From assembly GCF_038025025.1 (NCBI RefSeq), contig NW_027117349.1:434001-498000 (forward strand): 64,000 nt of DNA. Reading direction: 5' to 3'. The notes below the pieces were generated by a model. The model did no database searches. It was given only the letters and a program-made list of their open reading frames with translations, and had not been told where the DNA came from. Numbering within the stretch: the first letter of the stretch is position 1; every line of letters starts with the position of its first letter. The DNA is from Phyllosticta citribraziliensis. Taxonomy: Eukaryota. A program made the translations under genes and the position numbers. Below, piece after piece: positions 39,196-55,162 of this stretch.

Positions 39196-41184
39196 ATGGA
39201 GGTTCTGGTGTCCGTTTATTTCCAGCGCAAGGCGCTATTCTGGAGCTCGGTCTATGTTGGTGGGGGTCTTGCCATCGCAGCCGCAAAAGGTTGGGTTGGA
39301 GGTGAGTAGGCGTTTTTCCGTAAACCCTTCTTTTCCCCTCCGTCGTCAACCCCGGGAAAAGAAAAAGCCACAGCTTGAGGCGTCAACTTCATCGCGTTCC
39401 TCCGCCTTCATTTTCCAGCCCTCGTCGTCTATGTTTCATTCCATTTTCTACCCCATCCCTGCCCGTCTCGCCTGTCCTAACCACTACTACAGTACCAGAG
39501 CCCTTGCGCACCTATGAGAAACCGCTGTTGACAGCGGGCTTTGCCGTCTTTGCCGTCTTGGTTGGACTTCTCACTAGCTTGTTGACTGGACGGCGGTATC
39601 AGAGTGCTGCGGGTAGCGCCAATGGCCCAGCACCAACGATTTCTTACTCCTTACCTTATCTTGGGCACTTGATGCCGTTGCTATTTGGAAGAACGGGATG
39701 GTTGGTCAACATCAGGTGCGTTAGCAAATCAGCCCCGCAGCAATATTTCTGACGATGTCGAAAGGGACGCAAACAACCAAAACATCTTTGCCCTGAAGCT
39801 TGCTGGCATCAAACACGTTTTGGCCGGCTCAATCTTCTCAGCTGACAAGCTTGAGGAGAAAGGTGCAGAGCTGGCAGATGACCAGGAGCTTGCATCCATC
39901 ATGCGGAAGAATGCATTCGGCTTCGACAACGACCCTCTTTCGAGCGAGTTTTACGACTTGATTTTTACCCACGAACACGCCAAATCGCTGGCAAACAAGG
40001 CCGTCGTCCTCATCAGGGAAAACGTTCCAGACCTGATGACTTTCAACGAGAGCCAGGTTGATCAGCTACCGTGGGAAAGAGTGAGCATGACTACGACGTT
40101 CGAGGTCGACGGGGGGACAATGCACTCGGAGGCGAACATGCTCCCCCTGACGCGCGAATTTGTTGGACAGATCATGAACGCTGCATATGCAGGCGTCTCC
40201 TTTTTGGATGATCATCCCACGTTCCACGAGAGCATGTTGGCGCTCGAAGAGAACTTTTACATCATGACGACTGGACTTCCTCGCTGGGCACCCTGGCCGG
40301 GGGTTCCCGCGGGACACATTGGGCGGAGAAACCTCATTCGTCAAATGGCTGCCTTGAGGGAGTCGTGGGAGCGAGAAATGCTCGGGGAAGACGTAATCAC
40401 GACAGCAACAGATATTGGCGACTTCTCAGCGGCATATACCGCTGCTCAGCAAATCATGGACGGCTCCGGCGTGTCCCCGACAGCACGTGCAAGTACAGAC
40501 CTCAGCATTATCTGGGCGCTCAATGCCAGTGCTCGCGACTTGGTCTTCTGGATGCTCCTCCACGTCGTTGCTGAGCCAGGGCTTGCAGACCGCATCCGCG
40601 ACGAGACTCGGCCATACTGCCGCGCATCGCGGCCGAGCAACGACTTCAACCTGCCGGAACCGCCTCGGCTGGACATTGACATGGACGGGCTCTCAGACAA
40701 GTGCGCGTTGCTGAACAGCTGCTTCATGGAGACGGTGCGAATGTACAACACGGAATGGTCAGTGAAGCAGGCCAAGCAGGATTTCAGCATGACGGACGAG
40801 TCAGCGGGCATGGCGTCAACGTACCACGTGAAGAAGGGCGACCATGTTGACGTTTCGAACAAGTTGCTGAACACGGACATTGGGGCGTACTACGAGCCGA
40901 AGAAGTGGAAGCCGAGCCGGTTTGTAAACAGCTCGGGCAAGGCGGATTGGGGCCACGTCAAGCACAACAATGGCATGTGGCGCATGAATGGGACGGGAGA
41001 GTTCGCGCGCCGGCTGGCGGCAGCCACGGTGGCTAGTGTTCTGGCCGTGTGGAACTTTGAGCCGGCAAGCAAGACGGGCTTGTGGGTGGTGCCCGGAAGC
41101 AAAGAGGCGCCTCTGACAGCCAGGCCGGCGGGCGACGTGCGGGCGAAGATCACTCGACGGGATCTGGAGCAAAAGCAGGGCTGA
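39196..41184 (+). CDS. Cytochrome P450-fold protein, CYP7/8-like, lacking the heme-binding Cys (3 exons: 39196-39301, 39493-39715, 39766-41184)
   Basis: Hydrophobic N-terminal anchor, PxxxYxLPYLGH hinge, I-helix WALNASA, K-helix ETVR and PxRF (WKPSRF). There is no FxxGxxxCxG motif. Confidence 0.8.
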
Positions 41185-47110: not shown

Positions 47111-48593
47111 TAGCGGAACCAGCGGCAGAGAAAGGGAAACGTGCGTGATGGCGTTGGGCGGTGTGTGTTTTGTTGGTGGAGCTGTAATGTGATTTTGACC
47201 AACTCATCATGGATGACAAACGCGCGTTTGTCTGGCCACAACACGGCGGGGAATTTTTGTGAGCGCGATTACTCTCGGGTCCAGCCGACGACGGGGCCCC
47301 TTTCTTTCTTCTTTCTACATCACTTCTTTTCCGTCTGTCTGATTTCACGATCGGCCAGACAATCTTCGTTGAGGGGGCGAGCGAACAAACGAAGGTGCGA
47401 AGGGACGGATCCTCAAGAGCAGCGAACGGGTTGCGAGACGGACTAGTGGTGTCAAGCGCGAGCAGAGGGCGAACGACGAGTGGAGGACATCAAGAGAGAC
47501 TTCTTCTTGCCGTGTCCCTCTGATACAGAGAGAGGGAGAGAGGTATACAGTGAGAGCACTTTGGGTACTGTCAAACTCTTTCTCAATTGTCACTACTTCT
47601 ACAACTACTTTTTTCCACCACTTTTGCTCCCTGTAACATTTATCTCGTTGCTCTTCGCCGCTACCTACCGATGTCCTGACCTTCTTCCTTCTCGCTTTCC
47701 CTCCCTTCTTACTCTGTGCCTTGGTTGTTTGTTCTTATCGGTCTGTTTGCTGCTTGTTTGCGTGTCTGGACTGAGAGGTTCTTTGGTTCTTTGGTTCGAT
47801 TCGGATCGACACAGCAACATACGTGCGTGCGTGCGTGCTTGGAGAAGACAAGCTCTACAAACGAACGGCAAACAGCGCGCATGCAGTCCATCAAACAAAA
47901 AGGAGGAAAGAAAGGAGAGAACAGCGAAGAAAGCGTGGCAGAGGAGACCGAAGATCAACATTGGGTTGTTTGACTTCCTTGCGTTTCCTTTCTCTCTCTC
48001 TCTCTCTGTTTGCTTTCGCCGTGAAATCCCTCCGCACACACGGGTCCCGTGTTCACGGAAACGAGGCACGATGGAGGCACGAGGCGAGGCGCATGGGCAA
48101 TAATCCAATCGCGCGCATTGGCGTGTAGGGCAGACGGGAGCGGGACGCTGGGCGTCGTATTTTCTGCCCAGGCCGCTTGCGAGATCAATTGCCATTGCAT
48201 GGCAGCGGCAGTGTACTTGCAGCAGTAGTATGTATGTGTGTATCGAGGGAGATTGGAAGTAGGATATGAATGTGTCAAGAGGTGCCTGTCCTTTTGCATG
48301 ATGTTTGTGTGCGTGAGAGAAGGCGATAAAAGTCATGATATGGTTGGCACCAATAATTTCTTATGTACGGACAGACAGCACCACATCTCCGGATGATATC
48401 GGCAAAAGAGGAGCGAACAGCAAAAAACCATATGTACCAAAAAAAAAAAAAAGCCCTGGACCAAAAAGGGAAATCCATCAATTCTCCACAACCGCTTCCA
48501 CTTGATTCTCTCTCCTTGTTGCTTCTGCTCCTCTTCTCTCGTCTCGTCTCCTCCCTTCTTCCCCTACTCCTCAGCGCTCATATCGTCTCCCAT

Positions 48594-49535
48594 CTAAGCG
48601 CGCAGAGGCAGGGGAATCTTCTTCTCGCCCTCCTTGGGGCTGAGAATGGAGTCGTTGTCGAGAATCTCGTTGCCCTGGATGGGAACGTTGATGAGCGAGC
48701 CCTCGTCACCACGGCTGCTGAGGATCTTGTCGTTGTCGAGGATGTCATTGCCTTGGATGGGCAGGTTGATGAGCTTGCCCTCGCCGCGGCTGCTCAGGAT
48801 CTTGTCGTTGTCGAGGATGTCGTTGCCCTGGATGGGCAGGTTGATGAGCGAGCCCTCGCCGCGGCTGCTCAGGATCTTGTCATCGTCAAGAATCTTGTTG
48901 CCCTGAATGGGCAGGTTGATGAGCGAGCCCTCGTCACCACGCTCGCTGAGAATCTTGTCGTCGTCGAGAATCTTGTTGCCCTGAATGGGCAGGTTGATGA
49001 GCGAGCCCTCATCACCACGCTCGCTGAGGATTTTGTCGTTGGAGAGAATGCTGAGGCCCTGGATGGGCACGTTGATGAGCGAGCCCTCATCACCACGCTC
49101 GCTAAGAATCTTGTCGTTGTTGAGGACGTCGAGGCCCTGGATGGGCACGTTGATGAGGGAGCCCTCATCACCACGCTCGCTCAGGATCTTGTCGTTGTCG
49201 AGGATGTTGTTGCCCTGAATGGGCAGGTTGATGAGCTTGCCCTCGCCGCGGGCAACGTTGACGTTTGCGTCGACGTTGATCAGGCCGGGCTGCTTGGGGG
49301 GAGGAGCGGGGGCGTCGCGGGCGATGTTGGCGTTGGCGCTGGCCGAGACGAGGCCGGAGTGGCGGCTGGCGTCGTTCGGGGGACGGCCGTACTTGACCCA
49401 GCGAGGCTCGACGTTGTCGGCCGGGGGAGGAGGCGGCGAGCCCGGGGCGAGGGCGCTGCCGGCAGGTCCAGTGGGAGCCGAGTAAGAAACGGCGCCCAGG
49501 GCGAGAAGGGCCATGATGGTGCTGATGGAACGCAT
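48594..49535 (-). CDS. Secreted, Cys-free tandem-repeat protein; putative Kex2-processed repeat (KEP) peptide precursor
   Basis: 313-aa intronless ORF with signal peptide MRSISTIMALLALGAVSYSAP and eight repeats of the form G(D)EGxLINxPIQGxxxLxxDxILSx(R/K). Confidence 0.88.
   Translation of the reverse strand: MRSISTIMALLALGAVSYSAPTGPAGSALAPGSPPPPPADNVEPRWVKYGRPPNDASRHSGLVSASANANIARDAPAPPPKQPGLINVDANVNVARGEGKLINLPIQGNNILDNDKILSERGDEGSLINVPIQGLDVLNNDKILSERGDEGSLINVPIQGLSILSNDKILSERGDEGSLINLPIQGNKILDDDKILSERGDEGSLINLPIQGNKILDDDKILSSRGEGSLINLPIQGNDILDNDKILSSRGEGKLINLPIQGNDILDNDKILSSRGDEGSLINVPIQGNEILDNDSILSPKEGEKKIPLPLRA
48633..49247 (-). repeat. Coding minisatellite: 8 units of 75/78 bp
   Basis: Recurrent gggcaggttgatgagc / aggatcttgtcgttgtcgag blocks with length variation in whole codons. 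Confidence 0.95.
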
Positions 49536-52376
49536 GTTGAACGAGTGTAGTAGAAATTAGATTAGGTGGTAGTTGGTAAAGGTAGAGAGTGACGAAGTCG
49601 TAGTGAAGTGAGTGGCAGTCGAGAATGACAGTGGTGGTGGTGAAGGAGATGATTGTCGACGGTTGGACCGTTCCTTATGTACCGTAGAAATTGGGTCTTT
49701 GCCCCCCTGCCTATTACGCCACACTGGCATTGTATGCCCCAGCTAACACCTTGACTTTTCCCAAATGTACATGGGAAAAGCGGCGAATTACCCTCAATGA
49801 CGCCTCTGTGGAAATGGTTCTAGAGCGGATACGGCGCTGAAGCCCTGGGGCTTTTCGGGCATCTTGAAAACGAGGAAAACCACAGCTACCCATGGGTTAG
49901 AGGCGTGAGTGACTCCGTAGGAACCGTGATGATTTACCGCCAAGCTTTCCAGATGGAGTAAATATTAAGATATGGCCGGGGGCCCACCTCGTTTTCCTCG
50001 TTTTCCTAGAGAACGAGATTCCCAAAGCATACAGTCGCCCTCGTCTTGTTAAATTAGACGAGTCGAAGCCAGAACAAAACAGCATCTGATTGCTCGAACC
50101 CAGTCCTTGTCTGTGTCTCTAATGGTGCGTAAGGTCTTGCAAATGCAGTTGAGTCTAGGAGGAGGTCAGTTTTCTCCTAATCGACTGCATCAGGGATCGG
50201 ATTGGAAGTGATGACGGAGGTGATGACCATGATGCTCGTGTTCTTGGCCAGACTTGGACAAGGCTTGGACATACCCTGGACCGTGCAAAGCACGCCCTTC
50301 ACGGACCTTGGAGCGTGTTTACCCTATCGGTCGACTGCAGTTGGACGACTGCCGTCAACGGATGGGCGCTTTGGCGATCAGTTGTAATCATATCAGTGGG
50401 ATTGTTTATCTGCTTGGTTTTACTTATTGCATAGTGTGTGGGAAGCAAGTTTGTGCGCGTCGACTGCTGTCAGAGGTCCAGAGATCTAAATATAGTCAGC
50501 ACTGATCGACAGTCGAAACAGCCGTATACAGTATGTGTGTGGGCGCCTGAACACCCACCTTGTGCCGACAAGCGTCGACTACAGTCGGCGTCGTTGAGCA
50601 GTCGGTAAATGTCAGGGTAAACAGTCGCGACGGTAGCGATATTGGGCGCCGGTAATGGGGTGCCGACTGCAGTCGGGCGACAGGGTAAACACGCTCTTGA
50701 TTGCGACTCTGCCCTCTCGGTGAGCTCGAACCCAGTAGAGAGCCCGTCAGAGACGTCACCATGCAGCTCTCCGATGGCAACATGAACTGATGAGAAAAGC
50801 AGTGAACGGAAGCCTCATCAACACTGCAGCAGTGCTGGTGTTGCAAGGCGAATGTGATGCGTTTCCTACCAAGCCAAGATAGTAGCGACAACAGACTTCA
50901 GCGAGCAGAACAGATATCCTAATCGGTCTAGCGGGTCGACGGCTAACGGGCCGCTCCCAGTGGATTGTCAGGTACGGGTACCACAAAATCATGACTTGAT
51001 CCAGAGCGCCAAGCGTCAGCGGCATTCGAGAAGCCCTCAGGGGTGGTGATCATGAAGCGGTTCAGGGCACATTTTGACCACAACTGTTGACATAAGCAAC
51101 TGCGCACCAGTCACCAACCCCTCGCAGTATTGTCTCAGATGATCAGATTGCGCGTTAAACATTCCAACGGGCACGCAGGCGGTGGGGGATCTTGTGCGCA
51201 CCGAGGGAGCAAGCCGTGCGGAGAAGCTTCCATGGCAAAGCTCAAAAGATTCGTGGAAGGATTCTAGGACTCTGCCCCTATCATTTTGAGTGCACGCTAC
51301 TATGACCCCTTTATTTGTGGTGTTTTGGTTTTTGTGAAGTCGCAATGTCCCAAGAGGTTGGTCGGAGCTGTCGCTTGAGAGTGCGGGGATATCGGTCCAC
51401 CCTTCGCGGGGCATGGTATGACAATAAGGCATCCACAAGTTGTCAACTGTAGCAAGCGAAACTGGAAGCCGTATAGCTGGGTGGCTGGGGTGCTCTTGTG
51501 TGGCCTCTCGGATGATGCGAGTGGTGCGGTACCCAGCCCGCGGGGAACGCAGATTTCCGCCGCGTAAGCGCTGCGCCGGATCCACCGGTGATCTTTGGCG
51601 GTGGTGTTGAGCTTTGATGGTCAATTACACAGGGCTGACTTGTAGGGCTGCAGATAAGCAGAGGCTCTTCATAAGCGTTGTTGCGCCTCGTCAACAGTTG
51701 CAGCTGGAAAGGAGGCGTGTCGTGGCGGTGGTTGAAAGAAGGGCCGGATCGTGTCCGAAGGTCAACCGTCGACAAAACTTGTACAAGACTCCTATACTGC
51801 GTGCAATCGCGTCATGGCACTCAAATTTCGCGAAAGATTATGGAGCAATGGTGCCTGAAGCTCTTCATTCAATGCCGATGAAGTCTGCCGGATTCTGCAG
51901 CCTGCCTACTATTCCGTCAGTGCTCTCAAGGTAAAGACTGCTACGTCCCGACCGCTTCTGTCTCATAGAATTCAACGTAGCTGGCGTGGTAGGTCTCATG
52001 ACATCAATGCCATTCCTTGCTCCCGGCCAAACTTGTACCCCTCTCAGCTGGGCCACTCGCGACGCGCGGTCCTGGAGTTTGGGCGTCCGCGTAGGCTCTG
52101 ATGACTGTGAGCAGCAAACGAGTGCTCCAACTTTCTCCCGGTCTCGAGCATCGTAATCAGACCGGTGTACTGGGCACTGGCTAAGCGGAGATTTTGTCGT
52201 TTCGAGCAAAGCAAGGACTTGCCCCCCCATGAATCAGGTTGCGAAGTCCTGATATCGCTTTGGGAGACAAAATTACGTTGAGAGGCGTCTTTAGTGCCAA
52301 TACTTGGTGTCTCAAGTAGCTTCAAACTCTCCACCAACACCTGGAGCAAAGCCGGTCCCTGAGAACCAAACAAGCC

Positions 52377-55162
52377 TCACTGGCCCTGTCCGTTTCCGGC
52401 CGCGTACTGGCCAAAGCCAGAGTCGAATTGCAGAGGGTCAAAGTTCCAGAACCCCTAGGCAAAGGTCAGCGGAGACAAGACGTCGCTTAATCACTATTAC
52501 TTACCCAGTCCATGTCCATCGCCATGTCTTGAAGCCAGGCGTTGGTATTAATGTCACTCAATCCCCCGCCTGTCATTCTCTCAATCTCCGACAGACCGGC
52601 GGAGAATCCAGGACCATTGGCGGCGTAACGTGCCTCGATAGTGTCGCCATTGCCCATTGCCGACACCATGGGCTGACCATTTGCAGACGGATAAAGAACA
52701 TAATCCTGCTGTGACATGGTGACAGGAGGCCGCGACTGGGCCATGTTCATGTGCTGGGGGTTCTGGCGTGACGGCAACGGCACCGTCTGGGGCTGTGGAG
52801 TAGGAATAGTACTGGGACTTGGACTTTTGGCAAAGTAAATCACACTCAGGTCGTGTTCGCCAAAACGTTTCTCCGAAAATCCCCCCATTGTGCTCATTTT
52901 GGCGCTTTCGTGCTTTGGGTCCAGTCGATCAATCATGCGGCGGATCACGGCCCAAGTGTTTGAGTCGGTCCGGCCTTTGACAGCATATACAGTGTGCAGA
53001 GCGCGTAGTGCCCTGCAGCGGATGTTTGAATCGTTCGCGGCAGGAAACTGGGGATCACGGAGTTCGGAGAGGACATGCATGATGGATTGAAAGGCGGCAT
53101 GCCCGCCAATATGCCACTGGAAGTGCTCGGCATCCTTGTCGGAAGAGACGGTGTTGAGAGATTCAATCAAAGAAATGGACCGGGTCAGGACCTGGGTACG
53201 AATCTCGTCGGTGATGACCAGATGCCTGAATTCTCTCGGGACACCGTACCAGAATATGAGCCAGCAGCGCCACTCCAGATTTGCTGTCAGGCCAATGGTC
53301 AAGCGTTGGATGGTAATGTCGACGCGGCAGTATCGGAGATAGCACCTCTCGTTCTTGTCGTGCACTTCGTCGACCAGCGTCTTAGTTTCCTCGAACAGGT
53401 CCTGGAATTCCTGGACAATGTCGCAAGTCTCGCCGTCTTTGATTTTGGAAGCTTTGACCTTTCGATCCAGGTGGTAAACATTTTGAGCAATCCTACGGAA
53501 GCATTTGATCATGCTGAGACGGCAAAGTTGGAGCGTCATGTCTGTAAAGCCTTGCTCCTCCATGTGTGGGTCCGACGGCGGCATGCGTCCTTCGACGAGG
53601 TCGGTGTCGTTGACATTTCTTGGGAGCATGGTGGTGAAATCATCGTCAGACACGGTTGGTTCCATACCTTTCCCTTCTGCGGCTCTCCAGTCCATGTGGC
53701 ATATCTGATGCCAGACACGCCGGCGAATTTCCATTTGCACTTCGTCCATGGACGAGTTGGCAAAGAGCGTCGGCTCTCTGTGCAGACCCTGCAGCATAGC
53801 AATCCTGATGGCGATGCCAGTCAGTGGCCACACCGGGCCCATGTCGTCCTCGCGAACTTGGCACGTCTGCGGCAACAATTAGAATCCGACTATAAAAATA
53901 AAAAAAAATAAAAAAACCGCTTGCGTGGCATACCAGTTGCAAAACAAAGGCTTGAAGGACTTCGAGACTCGAAGTAGTCAAGAAATCGACTTGTTGGAGA
54001 GATAGCTCAAGACCTTGGTGGTATCTCATCAACAGCGTCTGCTTGTCTTTTCTGAAACGGGTTGTGACTGCCTCCGGTCTCAGACTATTTATGGAGGAGT
54101 AGAAGATGGCAAAGGCTAGGGGTTCGAAATGGTGGATCTGCTCTTCCGTCCAGGGGTCGCTAACGGTGTGAGATGTAGTCACGTATTTGGTGTTTGGGTG
54201 CGGGACCTACCTTTCGTCGGCGCGCCCAGAAGCGGGACTCATGTTGGCCCATCTTCGGATAAAGTAACTGAATCTGCGGCTCAGCGACGGCTTGTGCACC
54301 AGTCGACTGACGGGATCGACATTCTGGATAAAAATGCCGAACAGCTCGAAGCACTCCTCGGGAGTGTTTGGCATGTACTCCGAGGGATCGCGCGACACTT
54401 GGCCGCTGCTGAAAAGTAGTGACTGCGAGGTGCGGATTCTTGGCTCGCAAGGCTCTTCGGGATTGCCCTTGTGCTGCTCATTGCTCAAGATGGCTTTGAT
54501 ATCTTGCAACTGTTGGGAGAGATGAGCAGGAACTCGTGTACTATGTGCGGTGGACGAGGGCTCACCTCATCTGTTAATAGCGCCCAATGTAGGGATGAGA
54601 CAAAGTGCGATTGCCCATTTTCAACGAGGAGCGTTCCATCGTAAGCATCAGCGGCGAGAATCTGGTCTGAAGATGTGCTGCTTTTCGGGGAAGCCGAGTT
54701 CTCGGCCGCCTCTTTGCTCTCGACAACGTCGGACTTGGTTGGCTCGCGCCGGGAAGGTTGCCTGGTGGCGACTGGAGGATAGGCAGGCTGCGAGACGGCG
54801 CGCTCGAGCAAAGATTCAAGCCTCTCGAGGCGGGCGTTGATTTCGGCATGACTCGACTGAGCTCCTCGCGGGTGTGGAGCGGAATGTTTGCTCACGCGGT
54901 TGGATGTCGCGTTTGACGAGGAATTCGGCGGCGAGCGGCCGGATTGCTGGTTTGGAATATTTGCGTAGTAACAGACGTGATTTCCGCGGGAACATGCGGA
55001 GCAGATTGGATACTTGTGGTCGCATTTCACCTTGCGGCGGCGGCACGTGAGACACGAGGTGATGATTCGCTGGCGGGTGCCAGCTGTTGACGAGTAGGCG
55101 GGGACTGGCGGAGGGGCAGCAGCGGGTTGGGCCATGGGCGGAGGGTGGGCGTATCCGTCCAT
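52377..55162 (-). CDS. Zn(II)2Cys6 transcription factor with fungal-specific TF middle domain (multi-exon)
   Basis: SCLTCRRRKVKCDHKYPICSACSRGNHVCYY zinc cluster; NVDPVSRLVHKP, AMLQGLHRE and EIRRRVWHQIC; terminal exon ..MDMDW|GFWNFD. Confidence 0.93.

Follow-up and report, generated by a model that had tools for sequence, protein, structure and literature searches.

The gene at positions 48594-49535, on the minus strand of the window (the whole 64,000-nucleotide stretch of Phyllosticta citribraziliensis DNA that was analysed), encodes a putative secreted protein of 313 residues built largely of short segments that close on a single arginine. Our leading explanation, which we hold tentatively and with slightly less than even confidence, is that this is a Kex2-processed repeat protein, which would be cut at single-Arg sites into linear peptides that could stack on the cell surface like the repellents of Ustilago.

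A constrained gene for a repeat protein

The anatomy of the gene and of its product is as follows.

48594-49535, minus strand: whole intron-free open reading frame, 313 aa (P0001), putative secreted repeat precursor, indicated by codon bias and constraint
49479-49535, minus strand: signal-peptide-like N-terminus, residues 1 to ~19, cleavage point inferred; hydropathy peak, 16 of 19 residues identical to P0002
49401-49478, minus strand: pro-region rich in Pro and Ala, residues 20-45, closed by VEPR with an aliphatic P4 residue and Pro at P2; the VEPR site is also in P0002
49362-49400, minus strand: single-copy 13-residue segment, residues 46-58, with the only Trp of the protein; 12 of 13 residues identical in P0002
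49317-49361, minus strand: type A cassette A0, residues 59-73, beta-amphipathic (moment p 0.009), with an Arg end followed by Asp-Ala-Pro-Ala; akin to A1
49248-49316, minus strand: type A cassette A1, residues 74-96, Pro-rich spacer and alternating core (moment p 0.0015), Arg end; two full copies in P0002
48633-49247, minus strand: eight type B units, residues 97-301, indicated by the tandem repeat, the alignment and the coil model
49173-49247, 49095-49172, 49017-49094 and 48939-49016, minus strand: first four type B units
48861-48938, 48786-48860, 48711-48785 and 48633-48710, minus strand: last four type B units
48594-48632, minus strand: hydrophilic C-terminal tail (residues 302-313, then the stop codon) that contains a KK pair and finishes in LPLR; P0002 has this KK and the three terminal residues as well

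The start codon is the first Met within a 320-codon open frame, and a C/A/T-rich leader and CAAC directly precede this ATG. Codon usage is strongly biased (GC3 0.84 and A3 0.013 across the frame, A3 0.022 in the non-repeat part alone), A3 being 0.11-0.20 in all nine other reading frames of the window that were compared. This bias, the strongest among the ten genes compared, is what would be expected of an abundant product. A 395-codon ATG frame overlaps the gene on the opposite strand (48363-49550, plus strand), and we judge it to be a shadow of the strong codon bias.

Selection on the protein is visible both within the array, where dN/dS among the units is 0.38, and in relatives. Four of 23 listed public runs, none of them on record as RNA, were compared (X7, X8, X10 and X14), and in X8 and X14 just 8 of 30 bins were covered in each. 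Contigs from X7 and from X10 align in tiles along the repeat array, and therefore relatives carry it. Across the 3' end, one X7 contig shows 29 differences, of which 23 fall in 194 flank bases, two, both synonymous, in 157 coding bases, and four are unplaced (flank versus coding, Fisher p 7e-6 to 0.006, according to the placement of these four). The coding changes among the differences listed, beyond which 25 further differences exist, are nine synonymous and four non-synonymous in X7 and six and zero in X10, with the caution that short contigs inside the array may sit on the wrong unit. None of the coding changes listed alters an Arg, and all three X7 changes listed within residues 1-96 are non-synonymous. 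These observations show that the open reading frame is a real gene under constraint.

The sequence-only reading had proposed a secreted, cysteine-free precursor of several cassettes, and these points agree with the present analysis. Residues 7-16 form a hydropathy peak that is the only hydrophobic segment of the protein, giving a signal-peptide-like start, the C-terminus carries no GPI-type end, and Cys is absent from all 313 residues. Together with the repeat anatomy, this N-terminus supports the interpretation of the protein as a putative secreted multi-cassette precursor.

The type B repeat array

Both alignment and array detection recovered the eight type B units of 25-26 aa with the previously described ends, which are ILSER in four units, ILSSR in three and ILSPK in the last. 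At the DNA level, Tandem Repeats Finder reports a period of 78 with 7.7 copies, 86% matches and a score of 754, while the remaining four of the five tandem arrays in the window score 56-64; the array is far beyond chance. Mean column identity over the eight units is 88%, and 15 of the 26 columns are invariant, being occupied by Ile, Leu, Asn, Pro, Gln or Gly. The units consist of Ile, Leu and Val to 32%, lack Tyr, Trp, Phe, His and Cys (the first four are absent from the whole of residues 97-313), and are acidic, with a net charge of -1 to -3 counting Arg.

The cores had been described as amphipathic, with Ile/Leu/Val alternating with Asn/Gln/Asp. The alternation is present in the L-I-N-[LV]-P-I-Q motif, to which it is confined, the remainder of the unit being Ile-Leu pairs about 6 residues apart (sub-period ~6.4, period ~26). 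Amphipathicity was not recovered for these units: in neither the beta-strand (p 0.13-0.53) nor the helical hydrophobic moment does any of the eight exceed shuffled sequences. It is instead a property of the type A cassettes, which had been overlooked.

Type A cassettes and a relative in Phyllosticta citriasiana

Residues 46-96 contain three further Arg-ended segments, namely the 13-residue segment followed by one shortened (59-73) and one full (74-96) copy of the type A cassette, in which a Pro-rich spacer is joined to a core of alternating aliphatic and Asn/Asp residues that closes on Arg. Both type A cores are significantly beta-amphipathic, and the same holds for the three of three type A cassettes in the relative P0002 (p 0.001-0.0045).

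P0002 is a 147-aa Phyllosticta citriasiana protein, named uncharacterised in its source, and was the one real match among seven obtained with HMMER against 1.84 billion representatives. With 81% identity over residues 1-96, it is probably orthologous to the 313-aa protein. The two share the VEPR site, the 13-residue segment, the type A cassette and the C-terminal end; P0002 differs in that it carries the type A cassette twice in full, together with the beginning of another copy, and has no type B unit, and is thus built solely from Arg-ended Pro-rich cassettes. Similarity between types A and B, as would be left by a descent of B from A, is not significant (p 0.48-0.93). The conserved leader and tail, with A cassettes in P0002 and B units here, therefore indicate that the cassettes differ between the two species. 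Judging from the P0002 gene model alone, the two species seem to keep one leader and one tail around unlike cassettes, whose common trait would be the closing Arg. The best conserved segment between the two proteins is residues 46-58 (49362-49400, minus strand), which could be a separate bioactive peptide; it contains an Arg-Pro bond unlikely to be cut.

Distribution of the protein

No other relative was recovered. The remaining HMMER matches, P0003-P0008 (E 4e-6 to 1e-4, 18-37% identity), were rejected on their sequences and domains as compositional matches to unrelated repeats. The word-indexed search with the whole protein retained none of 8000 candidates (172-548 aa only), the same search with P0002 found no match beyond itself, and a two-unit profile retained a single candidate of 8000, a protein of 1005 aa that we dismissed as a chance match (E 0.18). 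Pfam families PF23603 and PF23896 were discarded, both being under cut-offs and covering 15-21 residues, and NCBIfam gave weak partial matches only. Neither the ESM Atlas nor the PDB sequences held a relative, and pattern matches were confirmed in 0 of 54 cases in 185,579 prokaryote genomes and in 0 of 167 in metagenomes. The P. citribraziliensis genome itself holds no paralogue, a pattern scan recovering the eight units and two hits with two mismatches, with two hits for a control pattern. By these sequence searches, the gene is genus-restricted.

These results also bear on the resemblance to Streptomyces rodlins and chaplins previously seen in the unit core. That the units descend from these proteins, by transfer or by shared ancestry, is an exceedingly improbable explanation, and all that speaks for it is that the aliphatic/Asn/Pro/Gln core looks similar to the eye over a short stretch. 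Pfam and NCBIfam, whose libraries should include rodlin and chaplin models, show no family match, with the reservation that short units make for weak searches, and no actinobacterial-type repeat appeared in the prokaryote genomes, among the HMMER representatives or with the two-unit profile. The RdlB peptides printed in PMC5314377, which places the amyloid-forming part of RdlB within residues 17-42, also look unlike the type B units when compared by eye.

Within the literature covered (subscription journals being outside its scope), we found no work joining Phyllosticta and Kex2 or describing this protein. Among the rows listed in the supplements of two surveys covering Kex2-processed repeat proteins (KEPs), its motifs occur in one unrelated row of PMC7329392 and in none of PMC6339444. 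Secreted repeat-bearing proteins of unknown role are mentioned in another Dothideomycete, Venturia (PMC5412055).

Candidate Kex2 sites

The surveys of KEPs define cut sites as KR, RR or KK (rules set out in PMC6339444) or as KR, RR, KK or RK (in PMC9769878). KR and RR are absent from the whole protein and the sole KK lies in the tail, so that none of the seven inter-unit junctions is dibasic by the survey definition, and these rules would therefore miss the protein. What marks the junctions is single Arg: of the 13 Arg beyond the signal region, 11 stand at the end of a segment, and the other two precede Pro or the last residue. The seven type B junctions have Leu at P4 (7/7), Glu (4/7) or Ser (3/7) at P2 and an acidic residue at P2' (7/7). 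As far as the statements on specificity in the sources go, Kex2 prefers Leu at P4 and tolerates Glu among the P2 residues (PMC8528282), the P1' and P2' positions favour acidic or small residues (PMC2515848), LxxR is defined as a Kex2 motif in the SnTox3 preprint (10.1101/2020.05.27.120113), and products that apparently arise from cuts after single Arg are reported for KEPs (PMC9769878). The type B sites thus show the extended motif, with aliphatic P4, Arg at P1, a listed P2 residue in four of seven and acidic P2'. The genome also holds a Kex2-type gene, the one found (L013, G000:C3), with one P-domain match and a subtilisin-type frame carrying the catalytic motifs. A dibasic KR ends the pro-region of this Kex2 gene product, which has a C-terminal membrane segment. 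The previously claimed Kex2 sites are therefore plausible on sequence grounds.

Several features nevertheless speak against cleavage. Besides the lack of KR and RR, the seven type B sites are tandem duplicates and hence not independent evidence, Ser at P2 in three of them is not among the preferred residues listed in PMC8528282, the type A junctions (NIAR, NVAR and DASR) have Asn or Asp rather than an aliphatic residue at P4, and type B unit 8 has no Arg. In addition, PMC2515848 states that a third of the predicted Kex2 substrates tested were uncleaved and that structure can block a site. On the other side, the Arg segment ends, the fit to published Kex2 preferences, the Kex2 gene, the loose junctions of the predicted fold and a single-Arg site in the hydrophobin of the same genome (both described below) suggest processing. 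Weighing these, we regard cleavage of the precursor at single Arg as probable.

Predicted fold and the possibility of an intact solenoid

From the single sequence, AlphaFold2 models residues 97-299 as a regular beta-solenoid with three short strands per unit, each unit making one coil (block pLDDT 58-84, the rest under 50, mean pLDDT 59, pTM 0.56). A second AlphaFold2 job modelled four units, with shifted windows of the unit supplied as the alignment, and again gave a solenoid (mean pLDDT about 59-60, pTM 0.48), in which pLDDT is under 50 at the chain ends and at all three Arg junctions. Both models thus predict beta coils at moderate confidence, in line with the beta-prone character earlier proposed for the units. 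In fold comparisons, the array model aligned with many beta-helices (best Z 14.8, rmsd 3.8, 230 aligned, with a flat tail, and 4-14% identity) and the four-unit model reached a best Z of 6.5, while Foldseek found no match at E <= 0.001. These matches of the models are to generic beta-helices, and none stands out. A complex prediction for a 30-residue unit in four copies gave 'no answer' and a score of 0.02, which weighs neither way.

These models cut both ways. They may indicate that only the pro-region and the type A cassettes are trimmed and that the eight type B units stay joined as an eight-coil beta-solenoid, serving as an adhesin, a wall scaffold or a curli-like fibre subunit, with Arg as a loop residue. 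The regular solenoid over the whole array, its alignments with beta-helices, the sub-period of ~6.4 within the period of ~26 and the absence of inter-unit dibasic sites make this a serious rival, although the modest confidence values of both models, the generic nature of the fold matches, and the lack of a B array in P0002, made of Arg-ended Pro-rich cassettes only, speak against it. Indeed, the unrelated A and B cassettes are both Arg-ended, as are all Pro-rich cassettes of P0002, which ill suits one continuous fold. The unit boundary, moreover, is a good extended Kex2 motif, and the candidate cuts fall in the loosest loop of the predicted coil, so that one peptide would equal one coil. An intact solenoid consequently appears doubtful to us, and processing into single coils remains our preferred reading.

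Genome context

Housekeeping genes lie to either side of the gene, one encoding myosin V and the other a Zn2Cys6 factor. Between the gene start and the end of the Zn2Cys6 gene lie about 2.9 kb (49536-52486), where one open reading frame was scanned and showed no family match. Just upstream of the myosin V gene, a 503-codon frame (39673-41184, plus strand) matches cytochrome P450 only marginally (E 3.6e-5, 23.2 bits).

No UstYa/DUF3328 match was found among the 50 window open reading frames scanned, as the sequence-only reading had noted, and none of the ten matches in the genome lies on the contig of the window (C12). They form about five loci, L005-L010 (G000:C1, C2, C3, C4 and C8), whose surroundings may hold dikaritin precursors. 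With no UstYa gene on the contig and no Tyr in the units, any released peptides would be linear rather than cyclised, as had been suggested. A dikaritin-type RiPP or an alpha-type pheromone precursor would have a signal peptide and repeats as seen here, and the UstYa genes elsewhere in the genome, together with the Asp-Ala/Pro-Ala behind one junction, would fit such a product. This interpretation is nevertheless very improbable and largely refuted. Ascomycete alpha-pheromones are unlike a protein with no Cys and 25-aa cores, no Pfam pheromone match was obtained, the units have no aromatic residue, and the neighbours are the myosin V and Zn2Cys6 genes. Dikaritin-type UstYa genes lie on average ~3 genes from their precursor, according to the figure given in PMC7329392, in contrast to their absence from this contig.

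The genome encodes a complete class II hydrophobin (L003:1225-1680, G000:C2), with three introns, eight Cys and a signal peptide followed by a short pro-peptide that ends in the single-Arg site TIEAR. Translation led us to discard L004, another class II candidate, and the search for class I hydrophobins gave no match and is uninformative, because the controls were likewise unmatched. The hallmark of hydrophobins, eight conserved cysteines, is absent from the repeat protein. The proposal that the peptides act as a hydrophobin substitute, filling a gap, is weakened because an intact class II gene exists.

Proposed processing and relation to known systems

In the mechanism that we favour, the signal peptide would carry the precursor into the secretory pathway, where Kex2 would cleave behind Arg at VEPR and at the seven LSER/LSSR sites; the NIAR, NVAR and DASR junctions may also be cut. 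A Kex1-type carboxypeptidase would then remove the Arg, and a Ste13-type enzyme may remove Asp-Ala/Pro-Ala behind the type A junction. The expected products would be some seven acidic 24-25-mers, together with a single longer terminal piece and a pair of amphipathic peptides from the type A cassettes. Each 25-mer could fold as one three-strand beta coil and stack with others of its kind into a beta-rich wall layer, which the type A peptides may join as amphipathic strands. Such a layer on the hyphal or spore wall might tune adhesion or wettability, in the manner of Ustilago Rep1 repellents, and would work alongside the hydrophobin, not in its place. Given cleavage, a structural role at the surface seems to us somewhat better supported than not.

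The closest parallel is Ustilago maydis Rep1 (and Hum3 and Rsp1), similar in its signal peptide, its tandem cassettes and the absence of tailoring enzymes nearby. Rep1, as described in PMC4617103, has 652 aa with 12 repeats of 34-55 aa called amphipathic, and cleavage at its Kex2 sites yields peptides that assemble as amyloid fibrils on aerial hyphae (PMC3133707, PMC4617103). In contrast to this basidiomycete protein with its longer amphipathic repeats, the ascomycete protein has eight near-identical acidic units of 25-26 aa, two amphipathic cassettes of another type and single-Arg sites only, and no Ustilago protein (Rep1 or Hum3) was retrieved by the word-indexed, HMMER or two-unit-profile searches. 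The type B units, being acidic and not significantly amphipathic, are unlike the repellents as these are described, and the solenoid in both models and the presence of a hydrophobin gene also count against the favoured mechanism.

If cleaved, the peptides might instead remain soluble and act as signals, effectors, antimicrobials or acidic cation binders, with residues 46-58 as a possible separate signal. The net acidic, non-amphipathic type B peptides and the strong conservation of residues 46-58 would suit such roles, as would the fast turnover of cassettes within the genus, which we take to be common in host-facing proteins. The 15 invariant columns and the repeatable coil model are better suited to stacking, and 24-25-aa units without an aromatic residue are, to our knowledge, unlike peptide ligands. 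Although functions of this kind have been proposed for many KEPs, most of which have no assigned function according to PMC9769878, we consider soluble peptides rather unlikely here, and return to stacking at the surface as the favoured fate of the products.

KEPs share with this protein a signal peptide, internal repeats and basic residues between repeats (features named in PMC6339444 and PMC7329392), and its eight units exceed the minimum of at least three internal repeats. Most KEPs, in the account of PMC7329392, have no DUF3328 neighbour and very diverse cores. In contrast, the surveys PMC6339444 and PMC9769878 rely on dibasic sites by the rules that they state, whereas this protein has none between units; because the dibasic rule fails, it is KEP-like and is not filed here as a KEP by the survey definition.

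The K2PP effectors (SnTox3, ToxA and SIX1/4/6) are alike in their LxxR junction and in a disordered pro-region ending in aliphatic-x-x-Arg, as they are described in connection with that motif. In these effectors, LxxR frees one folded domain, whereas the present protein has seven copies of it, set between short cassettes.

Finally, a predicted parallel solenoid with one coil per repeat recalls the two-partner secretion domains, the Awp adhesin domains of Candida glabrata and CsgA of curli. The likeness is of generic fold only, at the 4-14% identity given above, and we know of no such solenoid in these three groups that is cut at every coil.

Significance for Phyllosticta and for repeat precursors

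A more far-reaching version of this proposal is an ascomycete repellent-like system in which the convertase would cut a beta-solenoid at every coil, each 25-mer rung would restack into a surface fibre, cassette types would be swapped between species, and the protein would stand for a class of single-Arg precursors; we consider this version doubtful as a whole. The gene is a single orphan example of an architecture that is widespread, with 7878 KEPs counted in PMC7329392. Unrelated cassette types apparently exchanged inside one conserved leader and tail make it a compact case of precursor evolution. If the processing and surface roles proposed here are true, repeat precursors can rely on single-Arg sites alone, uncounted by dibasic screens, and repellent-type peptides, which the literature covered here reports so far for Ustilago, a basidiomycete, would be present in an ascomycete as well, one that is associated with plants and also possesses a hydrophobin.
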